From the NCBI GenBank assembly GCA_038065315.1, contig JBBTRF010000001.1:592458-656457 (forward strand): a stretch of DNA of 64,000 bases, written 5' to 3'. The notes beneath the pieces are model-generated. The model was not told the origin of the DNA. It was given only the letters and a program-made list of their open reading frames with translations, and made no database searches. Both the position numbers and the translations under genes were made by a program. Source of the DNA: Patescibacteria group bacterium. Its GTDB lineage: Bacteria; Patescibacteriota; Minisyncoccia; Phycocordibacterales; JBBTRF01. Shown here in pieces: positions 8,242-32,815 of the stretch. How positions within the stretch are numbered: the first letter of the stretch is position 1; the number at the start of each line of letters is the position of its first letter.

Positions 8242-8502
8242 ATGATCACATCATTTTTCACCGCAAAGGATGCGAAGAACAACTTCGGACGGCTTTTAGA
8301 GGAAGCACGGCAGTCTCCTGTGGCCGTTCTTAAAAACGGTCGACAGGTGGCTGTGGTCATGTCAACCGAGGAATACCGCGAATTTGAGACTCGAAGAGAC
8401 ATCTATTGGGGCGAGCTTTCTGTGCGTGCACACAAGAAGGGGTATATTGGAACGGCTAAGAGCGCCAAGCTTTTAAAAGAGGCTCTCCATGCTCGAGATT
8501 GA
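8242..8502 (+). CDS. type II antitoxin, Phd/YefM family
   Basis: AKDAKNNFGRLLEEARQSPVAVLKNGRQVAVVMSTEEY; overlaps downstream toxin gene. Confidence 0.8.
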   Translation: MITSFFTAKDAKNNFGRLLEEARQSPVAVLKNGRQVAVVMSTEEYREFETRRDIYWGELSVRAHKKGYIGTAKSAKLLKEALHARD

Positions 8503-8764
8503 TCTCTCAAAAGTTTCTGAAAAGTTTCTAAAAAAACTGCCGCCCAAGCAGCGTCGCCAAGTGGCTGAGAAAGTGTATACTCTTGCCGAAAATCCGCAGG
8601 CATCGGATACGAGCCTTTTGCGCGGATATGAAGAATATTATCGTGCAGATATTGGCGAGTACAGAATCATTTATCGCTGGTCTAAAGAATGTTTGCATGT
8701 GACGTTAATAGGGAAGAGAAATGACGGTGACGTGTATAGAAAGTTAAAACGAATGAGAGGTTAG
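8489..8764 (+). CDS. relE: type II toxin, RelE/ParE family
   Basis: KKLPPKQRRQVAEKV...EYRIIYRWSKE..LHVTLIGKRND; 14-nt overlap with antitoxin. Confidence 0.8.
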   Translation: MLEIDLSKVSEKFLKKLPPKQRRQVAEKVYTLAENPQASDTSLLRGYEEYYRADIGEYRIIYRWSKECLHVTLIGKRNDGDVYRKLKRMRG

Positions 8765-10674: not shown

Positions 10675-10704
10675 TTGACAAAATGGTATCAAGTGGTGTA
10701 TAAT
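10675..10704 (+). promoter_or_regulatory. consensus sigma70 promoter TTGACA-18-TATAAT upstream of DGR target gene
   Basis: -35 10675-10680, -10 10699-10704. Confidence 0.5.
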
Positions 10705-10834: not shown

Positions 10835-11506
10835 GTGAATAGCAACGACACCACAGTCCCCGCAACAGCAGCTTACACCACCGAACAGCGCGAGAAATTC
10901 GAACTCCTTCTGCAGCAGAAGGGTATCGTGCCCGTCACCTTCCAGCTCCGCCTGGAATGCGGCATTCTGGCCGATCTCCTCGACCCTCGCGCGGACCTCA
11001 CCAAGCGCCTCGCGGTCCGTGCAGCGCTCGGCCTCGGTCCGCTGCCCTCAGAACCCGGCTCCCACATCGTGGACTACAGCCAGGCGCTCGAGGTCATGGT
11101 CGCGGCTGGCAACTACGACTGGACGAACGACGGCATCACGCCCAAGTGCTTCCCGATCGTTGGCGAAGGCAAGGTTGAATTCGAAGACGCCCTCTTCCAC
11201 TTCGACAAGGACGTCTCCTCGGCGGCTGCGATCGCGCAGATCTGCGCCGCCGACCCGGCCAATCCCTGGGAGCCAGCCAAGATCGAAAACATCCTCGCTT
11301 ACGGGGCCAAGAACCCCGAGGAGCAGCGGAAGTTCCCGATAATCGCGCTCGGCTCCGTCGCGGAGGTCCGTGGCGGCCGCCGCGTGCCGTATCTCGGCGG
11401 GGACGGTTCCGTGCGCAGCCTCGACCTCGGATGGTTCGACGGCGGCTGGGGTGCCAACGACCGTTTCCTAGCGGTTCGCAAAAAGTCTCGGACCTCGGTT
11501 TCTTGA
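10835..11506 (+). CDS. DGR target (variable) protein; C-terminus encoded by VR
   Basis: GTG start with GGAGA RBS; 3' 129 bp matches TR with adenine-specific differences. Confidence 0.8.
   Translation: MNSNDTTVPATAAYTTEQREKFELLLQQKGIVPVTFQLRLECGILADLLDPRADLTKRLAVRAALGLGPLPSEPGSHIVDYSQALEVMVAAGNYDWTNDGITPKCFPIVGEGKVEFEDALFHFDKDVSSAAAIAQICAADPANPWEPAKIENILAYGAKNPEEQRKFPIIALGSVAEVRGGRRVPYLGGDGSVRSLDLGWFDGGWGANDRFLAVRKKSRTSVS
11351..11479 (+). repeat. DGR variable repeat (VR)
   Basis: 129 bp aligned to TR 11873-12001: 22 differences at TR adenines, 1 at a TR thymine, 0 elsewhere. Confidence 0.85.
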
Positions 11507-11513
11507 TCCCTCG

Positions 11514-11525
11514 GCAAGCGCTTGC
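11514..11525. promoter_or_regulatory. perfect palindrome GCAAGCGCTTGC about 35 bp downstream of VR (possible DGR homing hairpin/cruciform)
   Basis: read directly; position analogous to hairpin downstream of VR in characterized DGRs. Confidence 0.4.
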
Positions 11526-11586
11526 GCTTCAGGCCCTTGGCCCCTTGGAATCTTGGACCCTTCGGCCCCGGACAGTCAGTTTCATC

Positions 11587-11627
11587 CCGTGCGTGTGCTT
11601 CAGAGCTACGCACGGTTTTTTCTTTTT
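11587..11627 (+). terminator. rho-independent terminator (CCGTGCGT..ACGCACGG + TTTTTTCTTTTT)
   Basis: 8-bp stem + T-run after target gene. Confidence 0.65.
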
Positions 11628-11872
11628 CGACTTTCGTATATACTATCCAGCGACAAGTGAAAAATCTAAGGTTACGGCTTTGGGTAATTTGTCCGCAACC
11701 CGCGGGGCGAGAGTTCGGGTGGTCACGGCTGTCCGAAGAGTGCCTTGCGGTGTGTCCTTAAAAAATTAGAGACAGTTGGTGCGAGAAACTGGGTGATAGA
11801 ATAATGTCACGAATTCGATACAGTCCCTGCGAAGCTATCGGGGGACAGTGCCACAGATGGTCTCTCGCACAA

Positions 11873-12001
11873 GGCTCCGTCGCGAAGGTCAATGGCAACC
11901 GCAACGTGCCGTATCTCAACAAGGACGGTTCCAAGCGCAACCTCAACCTCAAATGGTTCGACAACGACTGGAATGCCAACTACCGTTTCCTAGCGGTTCG
12001 C
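11873..12001 (+). repeat. DGR template repeat (TR), rich in AAC/AAG/AAT codons
   Basis: see VR; ORF 11804-12022 in the six-frame track is a by-product of TR, not a gene. Confidence 0.85.
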
Positions 12002-12006
12002 TACTT

Positions 12007-12375
12007 TCACGATTTCTCCTGAGAAACTATCTCGGGAGTTTTTTGTAACAGCTGCCGTTTCCAGCCGCCGAGCATCTTGCCGATCTCGGCGAACTTCTCA
12101 GCGAGCACAGCGTATTTTTTGTTGTCCAGAGCCTTTATTTCCCAGGCCAATTGCATTAGCAGCTTGATGAGGTCAACCTTGGAGATACCCCTGTTCAACA
12201 GGGCCTGTTTTTCCGTCGTGTGGGTGTAGCTTGCCATGAAGGTGTACTCGATCGCTTCGAGAAATAGTATGTCTATCTTCGAGCCGATGGTGAAGCGGTT
12301 GGCTTTCGGGAAATGGGTGAGATATTCTTGCCAGATACTATAAACATCCTTGAGCTTCAGTACGACCGGGATCAA
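12007..12375 (-). CDS. Avd-like four-helix-bundle protein (DGR accessory variability determinant family), antisense to RT
   Basis: 122 aa, FPK...EK..L..LA.E...L pattern resembling four-helix-bundle family (TIGR02436); AT-rich. Confidence 0.45.
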   Translation of the reverse strand: MIPVVLKLKDVYSIWQEYLTHFPKANRFTIGSKIDILFLEAIEYTFMASYTHTTEKQALLNRGISKVDLIKLLMQLAWEIKALDNKKYAVLAEKFAEIGKMLGGWKRQLLQKTPEIVSQEKS

Positions 12376-12440
12376 TCTTGGAGATGAGGGGGGGGGTCTT
12401 AACAGGTTGCATTTTGGTTTTTGAATTAAAATAGATAAAC

Positions 12441-13427
12441 GTGTACAACCATATCATTTCTATCGAAAATTTGCTCGAAGCGTGGAAGGAGTTTCTAAAA
12501 GGGAAGCGTCGCAAGAAAGACGTGCAGGATTTTCAATACAGGCTCTCAGATAATATTTTCGCACTTCATCTCGAACTCAAAAACAAGACCTATGTCCACG
12601 GTGGATACCATGCGTTTAACATTTCCGATCCGAAGCCGAGAAATATTCACAAGGCGAGCGTGAGAGATCGACTGTTGCATCATGCTGTCTATCGTCAGCT
12701 TTACCCATTTTTCGATCCGACATTCATCCATGATTCGTATTCGTGCCGCAAGTTGCGGGGTACCCATCGAGCGCTAGAAAGATTCAGGCGTTTTGCCTGG
12801 CAGGCAAGCAAAAATAACACGAAAACTCTTTGGATGTTGAAATGTGATGTGCGGAAATTCTTCGCCTCTATCGATCAAAAAATACTTCTCGACACTTTGC
12901 GGCAGTATCTTCCTGATAAAAATGTTATCTGGCTCATCGGAAGGGTGGTCGAGAGTTTTCAAAGCACTGCTCCGGGGAAGGGGTTGCCACTCGGAAATCT
13001 CACGTCGCAGCTATTGGTGAATGTGTACATGAACGCATTCGACAAGTTCATGAAACAGGGATTGAAAGGGAAATACTACATCCGATACGCGGATGACTTT
13101 GTGGTCATGGACACCGACAAGGAGCGGCTTCATTGGGTGCTGGAAGAAACCGAACATTTCTTGCGAGAAAAATTGGCACTCACTCTCCATCCTGACAAAA
13201 TCAGTATCAGCACGTTTGCCTCGGGTGTCGATTTTCTCGGCTGGGTGCATTTCCCCGATCATCGAGTGCTGCGAACGGCCACGAAGAAGCGGATGTTCAA
13301 GAAGTTGAAAGCCGCTGGACCCGAGTCAAGAATGTCCTACTTGGGAATGCTGAAGCATGGAAATACATTTCGATTGAAGCAGAAAATAGAAACCCCGCCG
13401 TTTGGCGGGGTTTCTCGAAGCCTGTGA
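12441..13427 (+). CDS. DGR reverse transcriptase
   Basis: RT motifs incl. YIRYADDFVV (YxDD) and DGR-diagnostic LPLGNLTSQ (vs QGxxxSP in group II introns). Confidence 0.85.
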   Translation: MYNHIISIENLLEAWKEFLKGKRRKKDVQDFQYRLSDNIFALHLELKNKTYVHGGYHAFNISDPKPRNIHKASVRDRLLHHAVYRQLYPFFDPTFIHDSYSCRKLRGTHRALERFRRFAWQASKNNTKTLWMLKCDVRKFFASIDQKILLDTLRQYLPDKNVIWLIGRVVESFQSTAPGKGLPLGNLTSQLLVNVYMNAFDKFMKQGLKGKYYIRYADDFVVMDTDKERLHWVLEETEHFLREKLALTLHPDKISISTFASGVDFLGWVHFPDHRVLRTATKKRMFKKLKAAGPESRMSYLGMLKHGNTFRLKQKIETPPFGGVSRSL

Positions 13428-13437
13428 AGGCACTGTG

Positions 13438-13522
13438 CGGAGGGGGTGAGATTCGAACTCACGATGCCTTTCGGCATGCCGCATTTCAAGTGCGGTACGT
13501 TAGACCACTCTGACACCCCTCC
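13438..13522 (-). tRNA. tRNA-Ser (anticodon TGA), type II with long variable arm; D-arm pairs poorly
   Basis: manual fold of reverse complement: acceptor GGAGGGG/CCCCTCC, anticodon stem CCGCA/TGCGG loop CTTGAAA, T-arm GTGAG-TTCGAAT-CTCAC. Confidence 0.6.
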
Positions 13523-14496
13523 CTGATACGCTTGTGCTGCCTATGTCGTTGTGGATTTGAACTCCCGACAACCTCCATATACTTGCATATTTCATTGAGA
13601 TTTTCAAGCTGTACGGCCTTGCCGCCCCTCCGGATCTTTGGATGTAAATCGAGAGAGGAAAGTATTTCGTAAAGCTGCTCGATGAGCCCGGGTATATAAA
13701 TGGTGATGTTTAATCTCGCGTAAGAATACTTCCTGTTTTTGTACGAAGAATGAGTCTCCAAAAAGATGCATCCGTCGGTGTCCAGGGCACCCCGCAGGCA
13801 AGCTTTTCGATACTCTTGATTCGCCATAATCCATTCCGGAATTCGCGCATCAGATGTTATTTTACTTCCTACCGAAAAACCACATTCTTTCATGAAAAAG
13901 AGTACGCATTCTCGGCTCGATATTCGGACGTCGCAAGCGCCGTGATTTTCTCGATCGTGCAGGCTGACAGGGATTCCGAAAAGATCTTTGGATAGCGTTT
14001 GAACATATTTTGCATAAGCTCGTTCCTCTTTTGAAAGGGTAATAGTGATCTGATACGGGTTTATGCCGCCGTCACCCAGGATGATTCCTGCGAGTTCGGC
14101 AAGACGGGTGCTATGCTCGGGAGTCTTCATGGTGTGTTTGAAACGCTTTTCGTGCCGACCCTTTCTTTGCCACCAGTCCACCCACGCTTGTTTTCGAACG
14201 GTCTCGCTCACCGGTACGCGGGAGTACTTGGCGATCAAGCCTTCTCCGCCTTTGCTTGAAATGCTCGCTAGATGTTTCTTTTGGTCGAAGGAGGGAAGCC
14301 CTTTTGGCGCAGCTACACCACTCACTATTTCGATTTGTTTTGCTCTAGCTGCATATAGTGGGTAGCGGCCTTCGCGGTATTCTCCCAGTGTTCGTGGATG
14401 GACACCGAGTCGGTGTGCGAATTCGAACAGACTGCCTTTAAATTCAGCCAAAGCTTTTGCGACAAACCTCTTCTGTATATTAGATATATCAGCCAT
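13486..14496 (-). CDS. LAGLIDADG-family homing endonuclease-like protein with N-terminal HTH
   Basis: LAELAGIILGDGG and GALDTDGCIF motifs; 3' end overlaps tRNA-Ser by about 37 nt. Confidence 0.7.
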   Translation of the reverse strand: MADISNIQKRFVAKALAEFKGSLFEFAHRLGVHPRTLGEYREGRYPLYAARAKQIEIVSGVAAPKGLPSFDQKKHLASISSKGGEGLIAKYSRVPVSETVRKQAWVDWWQRKGRHEKRFKHTMKTPEHSTRLAELAGIILGDGGINPYQITITLSKEERAYAKYVQTLSKDLFGIPVSLHDRENHGACDVRISSRECVLFFMKECGFSVGSKITSDARIPEWIMANQEYRKACLRGALDTDGCIFLETHSSYKNRKYSYARLNITIYIPGLIEQLYEILSSLDLHPKIRRGGKAVQLENLNEICKYMEVVGSSNPQRHRQHKRIREGCQSGLTYRT

Positions 14497-14541
14497 GCAT
14501 CCTATTATACCAAAATCATCAGGATGGAGTAGAATGGTCGC

Positions 14542-14925
14542 ATGCGTCACCTAGGTATCGATTTCGGCAAAAAGCGAGTGGGGGTGGCCCTTTCGGACGA
14601 GGCAGGCAATTTTGCTTTGCCGCATAGTGTGCTGGCCAACGATGCGCACCTCGTCGAGCAATTGAAGGCCTTGTGTGCCGAGCAGTCTGTTGGGACGATT
14701 GTGATGGGGGAGTCGAAGGATTTCAAGCAGGTGGCCAATCCAATCATGAAGGCGGCGCTGGTGTTCAAGGCCGAGTTGGAAAAGGCGACTGGCTTGCCGG
14801 TGCATCTGGAGCCGGAATTCATGACCTCGGCCGAAGCGGAGCATCTCCAAGGGAAAAATGCGATGCTCGACGCTTCGGCCGCTGCTCTCATCCTGAAAAG
14901 CTACCTAGAAAAGCATCGGGGCTAA
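14542..14925 (+). CDS. ruvX: Holliday junction resolvase-like protein YqgF/RuvX
   Basis: MRHLGIDFGKKRVGVALSD... RNase H-like fold signature. Confidence 0.8.
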   Translation: MRHLGIDFGKKRVGVALSDEAGNFALPHSVLANDAHLVEQLKALCAEQSVGTIVMGESKDFKQVANPIMKAALVFKAELEKATGLPVHLEPEFMTSAEAEHLQGKNAMLDASAAALILKSYLEKHRG

Positions 14926-32264: not shown

Positions 32265-32815
32265 TCATCGGTATTACAGGAACAATTGGTGCTGGCAAGG
32301 GCACGGTAGTGGAGTATCTGGTGCAGAAGAAAGGGTTCGTACATTTTTCTGCGCGGGCGCTTATTTTGGAAGAAGTGAAAAAGCGCGGATTGGAAGTGAT
32401 ACGAGAAAATACGACGCTGGTCGCCAATGATCTCCGCGCGGCGTTCGGCCCAGACTACATTGCCAAAGAGCTGTGCCGCCGCGCGGCCGAGGTCCAGAAG
32501 CAAGGCAAGAATGCTGTGGTGGAGTCGCTTCGCAGTATTGGCGAGATTGAATTCATCCGTGCTATTCCCGGCAGCAAGGTCTTCGCCGTGGATGCCGATC
32601 CAAAGATTCGCTATGAACGTGTTCAGTCCCGAAAATCCGAACTCGATCAGATCACCTTTGAGCGGTTTGCCGCTCAGGAAAAAGCGGAGATTAATCCTGA
32701 TGATCCAACCAAAGGGAACCTATCAGCTTGCATCGCCATGGCCGACGTTGTGTTTATGAACAACGGAAATTTTGAAGAGTTGAGCAAACAGGTCGAAAAA
32801 GCCCTCGCTCGATAG
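32261..32815 (+). CDS. P-loop nucleotide kinase (dephospho-CoA kinase/dNMP kinase-like)
   Basis: IIGITGTIGAGKGT Walker A. Confidence 0.6.
   Translation: MIIGITGTIGAGKGTVVEYLVQKKGFVHFSARALILEEVKKRGLEVIRENTTLVANDLRAAFGPDYIAKELCRRAAEVQKQGKNAVVESLRSIGEIEFIRAIPGSKVFAVDADPKIRYERVQSRKSELDQITFERFAAQEKAEINPDDPTKGNLSACIAMADVVFMNNGNFEELSKQVEKALAR

Follow-up and report, generated by a model that had tools for sequence, protein, structure and literature searches.

The cassette at positions 10,835 to 13,427 of the window (the whole 64-kb stretch of DNA analyzed here, from a Hainich groundwater Patescibacteria MAG) raises the question of whether it constitutes a complete diversity-generating retroelement (DGR), and, if so, how its template RNA is organized and how its activity may be controlled. 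The genes are arranged in the order target with VR (+), TR (+), avd (−), RT (+), and the same cassette order is common to ca. 40 related loci.

Reverse transcriptase, repeats and architecture

The reverse transcriptase (RT) gene occupies positions 12441–13427 of the plus strand, starts with GTG, and codes for a 328-amino acid protein. DGR-clade RTs were recognized by a motif 4 of the form [LIV]GxxxSQ together with a YxDD catalytic motif. The initial annotation had reported a YADD motif and a DGR-diagnostic GNLTSQ motif, and both were recovered: LGNLTSQ corresponds to IGSLTSQ, and YADD to YMDD, in the alignment with the Bordetella phage enzyme, bRT. When the RT was compared with DGR, group II, and retron RTs, using similarity scores and curated cut-offs, it grouped with bRT. 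The best relative of solved structure was BPP-1 bRT (8ub7_A; 146.8 bits, E = 9e-42), which was 80 bits ahead of group II-like and retron-type RTs (66.8 bits or less, E = 2e-17 or weaker). A candidate RT promoter (TTGCAT at 12407 and TAAAAT at 12427) was dropped, its spacer being only 14 nt long.

The core of TR (11873–12001) was aligned without gaps to the core of VR (11351–11479), and substitutions were tallied by TR base. As had been claimed, the two differ at 23 positions, 22 of which are adenines in TR, so that 22 of the 33 adenines of the TR core are changed in VR (19 A>G, 2 A>C, and 1 A>T). The only non-adenine mismatch is TR 11981 T, which corresponds to G at VR 11459. The hypergeometric probability of at least 22 of 23 mismatches falling on 33 adenines among 129 positions is 1.1e-15. 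The homology probably reaches 8 nt further in the 5' direction (TR 11865–12001 and VR 11343–11479, both on the plus strand); this extension adds three A>N changes and matches at all five non-A positions, bringing the count to 25 of 26 mismatches at TR adenines. The final 19 nt (CCGTTTCCTAGCGGTTCGC) are identical between TR and VR, with divergence starting right after this segment, and in relatives, mutated adenines reach no further 3' than the equivalent of position 11982, 19 nt from the TR end. Within the repeat, no distinction between IMH and IMH* is possible. No GC-rich inverted repeat was found directly 3' of VR, the terminator-like hairpin 108 nt downstream being the sole exception, and neither strand of the 64 kb contains a further VR-like copy. 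Among 37 related loci, TR/VR differences comprise 750 A>N and 19 non-A changes, while at non-A sites the VR of each lineage tracks its own TR. The recurrence of the adenine pattern, and the fact that each VR follows its own TR, thus provide independent comparative support for a DGR.

As an alternative, the RT could be assigned to a group II intron, to a retron, or to a DRT/UG-type defence system, with repeats that result from an unrelated partial gene duplication, given that the top NCBIfam match is the group II RT/maturase model TIGR04416 (146.8 bits) and that many PADLOC models of DRT/UG RTs match at 50–100 bits. However, these scores are far below curated cut-offs (300 bits for TIGR04416; 50.5 vs. 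235 for Retron St85, 70.9 vs. 200 for Drt3a, and 55 vs. 390 for Drt2), the PADLOC hits are generic RT matches only, and Rfam matched neither a group II intron nor a retron RNA in the window. The 80-bit lead of bRT, the adenine-specific divergence (P = 1e-15, ungapped, and recurring in 37 loci), and the presence of an Avd homologue between TR and RT likewise speak against this explanation, which we regard as effectively refuted. PADLOC had no match for either Avd or the target.

The window contains an intact DGR-clade RT, an Avd homologue, and a 129–137-bp TR/VR pair, in the core order TR (11865–12001, +), avd (12007–12375, −), RT (12441–13427, +). We estimate at about 93% the probability that this is a DGR in the chromosome of a groundwater Patescibacteria member, with the B3 architecture typical of CPR. 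The earlier description of the element as complete has to be amended: the parts list that went with it lacked the minus-strand avd, the structured RNA, and the stem-loop with a U tract, all three of which were found here; the cassette thus also includes an opposite-strand avd, a TR RNA unit of ca. 400 nt, and a simple-sequence tract. Wu et al. (2018, NAR 46:11, PMC5758913) assign architecture B3, TR-(avd)-RT, to 90% of CPR DGRs. As far as their text was searched, the CPR-set B3 elements have the same gene order and orientations, a similarly small RT (ca. 330 amino acids), an opposite-strand avd that separates TR from RT, a groundwater Patescibacteria host, targets devoid of Pfam domains with a C-terminal VR, and occasional non-A substitutions; the core anatomy of the window element presents no difference. 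The text searched makes no mention of a 220-nt folded RNA 5' of TR or of an avd simple-sequence tract. As a DGR, the element is ordinary, a further example of a kind common in CPR bacteria, and adds one more well-resolved member to the CPR B3 class. DGRs of the CPR set reportedly also figure in work by Paul et al. that appeared in Nat Microbiol in 2017.

The target gene and its product

The target (variable protein) gene spans positions 10835–11506 (+) and codes for 223 amino acids. The proposal that a consensus promoter precedes it agrees with a putative σ70-type promoter at 10675–10704 (+), in which all 12 consensus positions of TTGACA-18-TATAAT are matched. A divergently oriented promoter-like site of the dsbA-like gene overlaps this segment. 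Downstream of the gene, at 11587–11627 (+), a hairpin (CCGTGCGT/ACGCACGG, 13-nt loop) followed by T6CT5 resembles a terminator and may act as one.

VR corresponds to codons 173–215 of the 223-codon reading frame. It had been taken for the last 129 coding bp of the target gene; in fact, the open reading frame continues for 27 nt (9 codons) past VR, to position 11506. The related statement that the C-terminal ~43 amino acids are hypervariable is correct in that VR spans 43 codons, but only ca. 18 of the 43 are variable, corresponding to ~1e18 protein variants.

No Pfam or NCBIfam match was obtained for the target protein and no transmembrane segment was predicted; it is apparently a small cytoplasmic protein. 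A C-type lectin or Ig fold had been suggested for its C-terminus, and the C-terminal domain is indeed predicted to adopt the C-type lectin fold. VR lies within this predicted domain, and the variable residues would be displayed on the lectin fold. The target family comprises at least 493 homologues of ca. 210 amino acids, in which C-terminal alignment columns alternate between invariant and hypervariable. This assigns a family hitherto unannotated in Pfam to the DGR targets with a lectin fold. The target's own 90% protein cluster contains one sequence only.

The template RNA and the proposed mechanism

TR is located 440 nt upstream of the RT gene, within a structured non-coding RNA. Directly 5' of TR, a domain of ca. 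220 nt (11648–11870, +) folds into six helices: P1 (11664–11673/11676–11685), P2 (11700–11706/11744–11750), P3 (11714–11723/11728–11737), P4 (11781–11790/11859–11868), which abuts TR, P5 (11793–11797/11806–11810), and P6 (11823–11827/11842–11846). Across ca. 40 related loci, compensatory changes were observed in 42 of the 47 base pairs, and 94.5% of cells were paired, compared to 40–48% in slid controls. The domain of the window scores 204 bits, among the best of the family. No Rfam family matched it at threshold. The P2/P3 hairpin (GAGAGU..GGUCACGGC..AGAGUGC, 11707–11747) aligned weakly to the first hairpin of RT-7 (RF03028). RT-7 and RT-10, the latter being the BPP-1 spacer, are RNA motifs adjoining RT genes (Weinberg et al. 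2017, PMC5737381), as is the domain described here. Membership in RT-7 was rejected, because the alignment scored 26.9 bits, where the gathering score is 116.8, and left out 143 of the 191 positions in the model, and because none of 17 related loci reached the threshold; at most, one module is shared.

A −10-like TATACT is found at 11639–11644 (+). While it was not called by a promoter scan, related loci keep TATAnT on the 5' side of the RNA domain at a constant spacing, which makes it a putative promoter of the TR RNA. On the other side, 15 nt 3' of TR, a 9-bp stem-loop (12016–12024/12030–12038) is followed by T6 (12016–12044, +); it is antisense to the 3' end of avd, which it overlaps. All 37 loci compared have this stem-loop, with covariation in the stem, and past its U tract variation occurs at every third base, as coding constraint alone predicts. 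The stem-loop is a candidate Avd-binding element and/or a candidate intrinsic terminator of the TR RNA. For both ends of this RNA, we infer the promoter and terminator assignments from sequence features. A covariation scan of the 5' domain against TR, the linker, and the stem-loop, looking for the strand that primes at the TR 3' end, produced only weak candidates of 4–6 bp. Of these, a UGGUG/UACCG pairing was rejected because it conflicts with mutation of the adenine at 11982, and a GGGAG/UUUCC pairing was put down to the fact that the TR tail resembles the stem-loop's 5' strand.

The Bordetella phage BPP-1 system serves as the model for the mechanism proposed here. A non-coding RNA of ca. 400 nt (~11648–12044), consisting of the folded 5' domain, TR, and the 9-bp stem-loop with its U tract, would be transcribed and bound by RT and Avd. 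cDNA synthesis would start ~19 nt short of the TR 3' end, place random bases across from adenines, and proceed to the P4 duplex, which borders TR on the 5' side. The cDNA would then replace VR by way of the adenine-free, GC-rich 3' homology, so that 18 codons of a ligand-binding surface could be recoded into ~1e18 variants.

The analogy extends to several parts of the BPP-1 element (mtd-avd-TR-brt). The RTs, both 328 amino acids long, are homologous over their full length (E = 9e-42), and BPP-1 also has an Avd homologue, a C-type-lectin-fold target with a C-terminal VR, and an AAC/AAG-rich TR; in both elements, mutagenesis appears to reach its limit ~17–19 nt before the TR 3' end. In the BPP-1 ribonucleoprotein structure (Handa et al., bioRxiv 10.1101/2023.10.23.563531), the Avd-binding stem-loop resembles the ~9-bp stem-loop just 3' of TR in the window, and the cPRT Stop resembles the duplex at the TR 5' boundary, which is preceded by a stem-loop and an A-run. 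The differences are as follows. In the window, avd is inverted and located between TR and RT. The 140-nt spacer (Sp) downstream of TR in BPP-1 is lacking in the window, where a U tract comes after the stem-loop, and the covarying duplex on the 5' border of TR is made with upstream, rather than downstream, sequence. The window also lacks the GC-rich inverted repeat after VR. Finally, the BPP-1 element is phage-borne and diversifies a tail-fibre protein, while the window element is chromosomal and has a small, apparently cytoplasmic target.

The avd tract and the activity of the element

The body of avd (accessory variability determinant; 12007–12375, −) codes for 122 amino acids from a TTG at 12375. 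It matched Pfam PF22296 (bAvd) with 50.6 bits (cut-off 40) and NCBIfam DivGenRetAVD with 63.4 bits, under the cut-off of 80. A leader ATG at 12410–12412 (−) is out of frame with avd in the window, and between the two lies a simple-sequence tract at 12388–12396, which reads C9 on the avd strand and G9 on the plus strand. Nowhere else in the 64 kb does a homopolymer reach 8 bases. Across ca. 40 related loci, the 5' coding end of avd has kept a poly-C/G or (GA)n tract, and 26 of the 27 G/C runs of at least 8 bases in 589 kb of these loci are situated at this very position. In 27 of 34 tract-bearing loci, the stretch that separates the tract from the avd body contains no ATG, GTG, or TTG. The avd gene is in frame with the leader in 8 of 26 poly-C loci, where ca. 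one-third would be expected for a freely slipping coding tract, and it is in frame with the conserved upstream ATG in all four loci whose tract is absent or interrupted (L010, L067, L069, and L070). Tract length varies between close relatives: two loci with G10 (L096 and L099) and one with G11 (L098) show no other mismatch over 3.9 kb, and L029 has G9 where L037 has G10. The four contigs of an interrupted-tract species are identical, and all five assemblies of the window strain carry G9.

In Campylobacter, Neisseria, and Haemophilus, phase-variable contingency loci have tracts of poly-G/C or of dinucleotides within the 5' part of the coding sequence. The avd tracts are alike in being 8–13 nt long and located just past the start codon, in varying by one unit between otherwise identical strains, in placing the gene in frame in ca. 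one-third of genomes, and in being fixed in frame when interrupted. Judged from sequence, avd thus appears to share two defining features of contingency genes, a tract in the 5' coding region and length polymorphism between otherwise identical sequences. The gated gene in phase-variable loci encodes a surface structure or a restriction-modification system, whereas here it would encode an accessory protein of a hypermutation machine, in a CPR host. By this mechanism, a hypermutable poly-C tract would gate Avd production, and C9, which puts the leader ATG out of frame in the window, would be consistent with the invariant VR across assemblies of this strain.

VR heterogeneity is seen between relatives, near-identical ones among them, and not among assemblies of the window strain. 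In the comparison of L029 with L037, 23 of 25 mismatches in 2.7 kb fall in VR. Between the window and L006, TRs are 96.9% identical, compared to 84–89% for the flanking genes, and the VRs differ at 16 of 30 A sites vs. 4 of 99 other sites, 3 of those 4 mirroring TR differences. The same holds for the related genomes (ca. 40), in which TR is conserved and VRs differ at A sites. Three mismatches inside TR at the contig end of L003 were treated as contig-end or repeat-collapse artefacts. In the window strain, VR is identical in every one of the five assemblies, which come from several Hainich samples. Since this is so, and since the 90% protein cluster holds a single sequence, no VR heterogeneity is visible at the consensus level. 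A TR pattern with N at every A had 0 matches to VR variants of this strain in a metagenome contig collection that does not include Hainich data.

This invariance could mean that the DGR is frozen or decaying in the window strain, VR being a fossil of past homing with nothing diversified at present. The out-of-frame avd leader and the one non-A change in VR (T>G) would fit such a state, and decay does occur in this family, since L025, L041, L051, and L053 have lost TR, avd, and RT and retain the 5' RNA domain alone. Yet the RT, avd body, TR, and RNA domain of the window (204 bits) are all intact, TR is more strongly conserved than the neighbouring genes, and minority VR variants would be invisible in consensus assemblies. 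Moreover, the avd frame is regained by a one-nucleotide tract change, as in L006, and the TTG after the tract could also be used. We consider a frozen element unlikely.

A reading to be taken more seriously, if still less likely than not, is that the tract is no on/off switch: it may belong to a 5' UTR or a shared promoter, transcriptional or ribosomal slippage may yield some Avd from every genotype, or its length differences may be sequencing or assembly errors. Homopolymers of 9–13 nt are prone both to RNA polymerase slippage and to sequencing error. A TTG start is available 3' of the tract in the window and in L006, an ATG follows the tract in some loci of the (GA)n subclade (L007), and no obvious Shine-Dalgarno sequence precedes avd or RT. 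On the other hand, most tract-bearing loci offer no start codon past the tract, and the loci in which the tract is missing or interrupted are all in frame with the upstream ATG. The in-frame fraction matching free slippage in a coding tract, the concentration of long G/C runs at one position, and tract length as the sole difference over 3.9 kb, set beside the identical contigs of the interrupted-tract species, also argue for a switch.

A broader reading, to which we give somewhat less than even odds, is that both of the following hold. The DGR machine would be under a heritable stochastic switch, the poly-C or (GA)n tract of avd, so that only part of the population diversifies the lectin-fold protein at a given moment. 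At the same time, the TR RNA would be organized unlike that of BPP-1, with RT positioning and cDNA arrest served by elements (stem-loop, A-run, and TR 5'-edge duplex) that reside in the 220-nt 5' domain rather than in a 3' spacer, and with the RNA ending at the stem-loop and U tract. No published description of either the conserved folded TR-RNA leader or the slippery avd tract was found, and these comparative by-products are of more interest than the DGR itself. For the regulation of DGR activity, the conserved hypermutable avd tract offers a testable mechanism. For the priming and stopping of cDNA synthesis in the many DGRs without a BPP-1-like spacer, the covariation-supported 5' RNA domain provides concrete constructs for in vitro reconstitution of a CPR DGR.

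The adenine signature and the gene complement of the element

In an ungapped comparison, the variable repeat (VR, 11351–11479) and the template repeat (TR, 11873–12001) of the element differ at 23 of 129 positions. Template adenines account for 22 of these mismatches (19 A>G, 2 A>C, and 1 A>T), and the single remaining one is a T at TR position 11981 that reads G at VR position 11459. The probability of such a concentration, given 33 adenines in 129 positions, is 1.1e-15, which confirms the substitution pattern described in the initial annotation. The VR is in frame with the target ORF (10835–11506, 223 aa), where it forms codons 173–215. Since the ORF runs nine codons past the VR end, the VR is not, as had been stated, the last 129 coding bp of the target. 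In the 8 nt located further 5′, all five non-A positions agree and three more adenines differ; therefore, the repeat is probably 137 bp long (TR 11865–12001, VR 11343–11479). No further VR-like copy was found on either strand of the 64-kb window. The TR contains 18 recodable codons, corresponding to about 1e18 protein variants, and a stop codon is reachable by mutation from four of them (three AAG and AAA). The adenine substitutions were strongly A>G (19 of 22 in the window; 469 of 750, with 163 A>T and 118 A>C, in 37 related loci), a bias that may come from selection, from RT misincorporation, or from both, and that makes the VR rich in Gly, Arg, and Asp codons.

The RT gene (12441–13427, plus strand, 328 aa) matches Pfam RVT_1. 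The closest solved structure is chain 8ub7_A (E 9e-42, 146.8 bits, residues 4–289 aligned), whose sequence is 100% identical to brt of Bordetella phage BPP-1; the runners-up, group II-like and retron-type RTs, scored 66.8 bits or less. With BPP-1 bRT as the best solved relative, and with scores that fall far short of the curated thresholds set for group II, retron, and DRT models, the earlier assignment of this protein as a DGR RT stands. PADLOC returned nothing specific for the locus. The initial annotation had recognized the DGR but overlooked the avd ORF (12007–12375, minus strand), whose product scored 50.6 bits with Pfam bAvd (cut-off 40), and 63.4 bits, under the cut-off of 80, with NCBIfam DivGenRetAVD.

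The target protein had no match in Pfam, NCBIfam, or PDB sequences. Its family comprises at least 493 homologues of ~210 aa, nearly all from Patescibacteria metagenomes, and an identical protein is present in GenBank (AAB391_03310, Patescibacteria group MAG). In an alignment of 45 homologues, invariant and hypervariable columns alternate over the C-terminal ~45 residues, following the pattern GSVxxVxGxRxVPxLxxxxSxRxLxLxWWxxxWxxxxRFLAVRK. The consensus promoter that had been noted before the target gene was recovered as a perfect sequence match (TTGACA-18-TATAAT, 10675–10704).

Upstream of the locus, at 8242–8764 (plus strand), genes for a PhdYeFM-type antitoxin and a ParE-type toxin form a pair (Pfam labels, gene table of L001). 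A tRNA-Ser(UGA) gene (13437–13522, minus strand) directly follows the RT gene, and the 3′ end of a LAGLIDADG/WhiA-like ORF (13486–14550, minus strand) overlaps it by ~37 nt. Both neighbours are kept in the related locus L006, where a gene for a 540-aa ice-binding/PG-binding protein is inserted between the RT and tRNA genes. Elsewhere in the window, ARAGORN called a tRNA of 93 nt whose anticodon has four bases (ttcc) at 32621–32713 (minus strand), which is below threshold in the Rfam tRNA model.

Homing in related loci

GCA_964355935.1 and several assemblies from Hainich groundwater contain the same genome segment with an identical VR, and no VR heterogeneity was detected at the assembly level in the window's own strain. 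One Hainich assembly (L003) has three TR mismatches, at window positions 11901, 11908, and 11909, ~40 nt or less from the contig end; they probably arose during assembly at the TR/VR repeat, with minority variation as the less probable alternative.

Locus L006 has the same synteny and encodes a target 83% identical to that of the window. The two TRs are identical at 125 of 129 positions, compared with 84–89% identity for the upstream part of the target, avd, and RT. Between the VRs, 16 of the 30 TR-A sites common to both loci are changed, but only 4 of the 99 remaining sites. Of these four differences, three mirror differences between the TRs; TR-to-VR information flow has therefore taken place in each lineage since the split of L006 and the window. 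The remaining one, T>G in the window, arose on the VR side, since T is found in both TRs and in the L006 VR.

Using one genome per species, a scan for target homologues yielded 80 loci across Patescibacteria, and ~40 of them have exactly the window's layout, target(+)-TR(+)-avd(−)-RT(+). Over 37 of these, 750 A>N and 19 non-A differences were counted between TR and VR, and the mutated adenine nearest the 3′ end usually sits 19 nt short of the point where homology stops (window 11982). Contigs L029 and L037, which come from different studies, are 99.0% identical over 2.7 kb and have identical TRs; 23 of their 25 mismatches fall inside the VR at TR-A sites, which is direct evidence that homing took place recently in this clade of DGRs.

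Some 40 loci (among L017–L086) contain target-family homologues with no RT or avd within 4 kb; a distant DGR may act on them in trans, they may be paralogues that are not diversified, or they may stem from cassettes that have decayed. At locus L074, a single TR serves two adjacent targets.

Conserved RNA structure around the template repeat

The distance from the VR end to the TR start is 260–480 nt, mostly 320–400, in 36 of 37 loci. The ~220 nt immediately upstream of the TR (11648–11870 in the window) are conserved, starting past a conserved TATAnT (TATACT, 11639–11644). RNAalifold analysis of a MAFFT alignment of 18 sequences predicted six helices (P1–P6), with compensatory changes in 37 of 47 pairs. 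A covariance model built from this alignment (R1) was searched in 82 sources and found exactly one copy in 49 of them, always on the target strand and ending at the TR wherever a TR is present. In the 49-sequence alignment, which was fitted to the model, 94.5% of cells were paired, compared with 40–48% with slid partners, double changes were seen in 42 of 47 pairs, and none of 500 shuffles reached any observed measure; the independent MAFFT-based result agrees. No Rfam family reached its threshold in the window or in 17 relatives, and the domain is absent from Rfam save for a weak match of the P2/P3 hairpin alone to the first hairpin of RT-7 (26.9 bits vs. a gathering score of 116.8). Some RT motifs besides RT-10 have been speculated to serve DGRs (Weinberg et al. 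2017, PMC5737381).

Helix P4 (11781–11790/11859–11868), which can be extended to 12 bp, places a duplex exactly at the 5′ edge of the TR, and a long P2/P3 stem-loop and an A6 run lie upstream of it. The arrangement is similar to that in the BPP-1 RNP, where the “cPRT Stop” combines a duplex at the 5′ boundary of the TR with a stem-loop and with adenosines in A-minor contacts (Handa et al., bioRxiv 10.1101/2023.10.23.563531). Unlike in P4, however, the duplex partner strand in BPP-1 is downstream of the TR. At 15 nt past the TR, a stem-loop of 9 bp precedes a U tract (12016–12044), and 37 of 37 loci have this stem-loop with covarying stems. It overlaps the last avd codons in antisense; past the U tract every third base varies, as expected from avd coding constraint alone. 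In 207 DGRs, some of them from candidate-phyla-radiation (CPR) bacteria, putative stem-loops for Avd binding, most often 9 bp long, were described immediately 3′ of the TR (bioRxiv 10.1101/2023.10.23.563531). The DGR RNA may be a ~400-nt unit (about 11648–12044) with accessory structure mainly 5′ of the template. Scanning for covarying pairs that join the 5′ domain to the 3′ end of the TR gave no convincing primer.

The 5′ RNA domain was also observed downstream of target homologues in L025 (4533–4749; full length and top-scoring), L041, L051, L053, L017, L058, L052, and L071, but neither a TR/VR pair nor avd nor RT was detected in their vicinity. Unrelated sequence directly follows the domain in the five that were inspected (L025, L041, L051, L053, and L017). 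Such lone domains seem to be left over from cassettes that were deleted; alternatively, the RT may be elsewhere in the genome.

A simple-sequence tract in avd

In nearly every locus, the gap that separates the divergent avd and RT genes contains a simple-sequence tract, which on the avd strand is poly-C of 8–13 nt, (GA)n (one subclade), or (CA)5 (a single locus). The tract of the window (12388–12396; G9 on the plus strand, C9 on the avd strand) is the sole homopolymer of at least 8 bases, of any base, in the 64 kb, and 26 of 27 G/C runs of at least 8 bases in 589 kb of related loci are at the avd tract position. The tract separates a conserved leader ATG (peptide M-x-[EQ]-L-N-x-H...) from the four-helix body of avd, and an alternative start codon after it is absent in 27 of 34 loci. 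All four loci with a missing or interrupted tract are in frame with the leader ATG, compared with only 8 of 26 poly-C loci. The C9 of the window (out of frame) corresponds to C8 in L006 (in frame), the 64-nt intergenic region being otherwise 100% identical; L029 has C9 and L037 has C10; contigs L096 and L099 have G10 and L098 has G11, with no other difference over 3.9 kb. In a species with an interrupted tract, four contigs are identical.

A length-variable tract of this kind is a classical signature of a slipped-strand contingency locus, and here it affects the gene for the accessory protein that BPP-1 requires for cDNA synthesis. Situated at the 5′ end of the avd coding sequence, with about one third of the loci in frame, the tract is a candidate phase-variation switch of DGR activity. 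The leader-ATG frame of the window reaches a stop after 23 codons, and Avd production would have to rely on the TTG at 12375 or on slippage. G9 was present in five of five assemblies of the window's strain, and the out-of-frame leader fits their invariant VR. Alternatively, the tract may work in a 5′ UTR or promoter, it may cause constitutive transcriptional slippage, or its length differences may be homopolymer sequencing errors. In an incomplete literature search, no paper was found that connects homopolymeric tracts or phase variation to DGRs or avd.

In many loci (L023, L044–L048, L057, L066, L067, and L069), avd and RT appear to overlap head-to-head on opposite strands through the first ~seven codons of each, in a near-palindromic ATG...CAT segment (ATGAACCAATTGAATTTTCAT in L067). 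Part of the conservation of the avd leader peptide may hence be due to coding constraint on the RT.

Both the initial observation and its interpretation as a DGR hold. The B3 architecture of Wu et al. 2018 (PMC5758913), TR-(avd)-RT, is reported there for 90% of CPR DGRs; on that account, an inverted avd is expected for a CPR DGR and is no novelty. According to that study, most CPR DGR targets are without recognisable domains, and non-A substitutions are frequent in CPR DGRs. The element is a typical CPR (B3) DGR with a predicted lectin-fold target, and so is ordinary in kind. Beyond a routine DGR call, the 5′ RNA domain and the hypermutable avd tract are the family-wide features that deserve follow-up.
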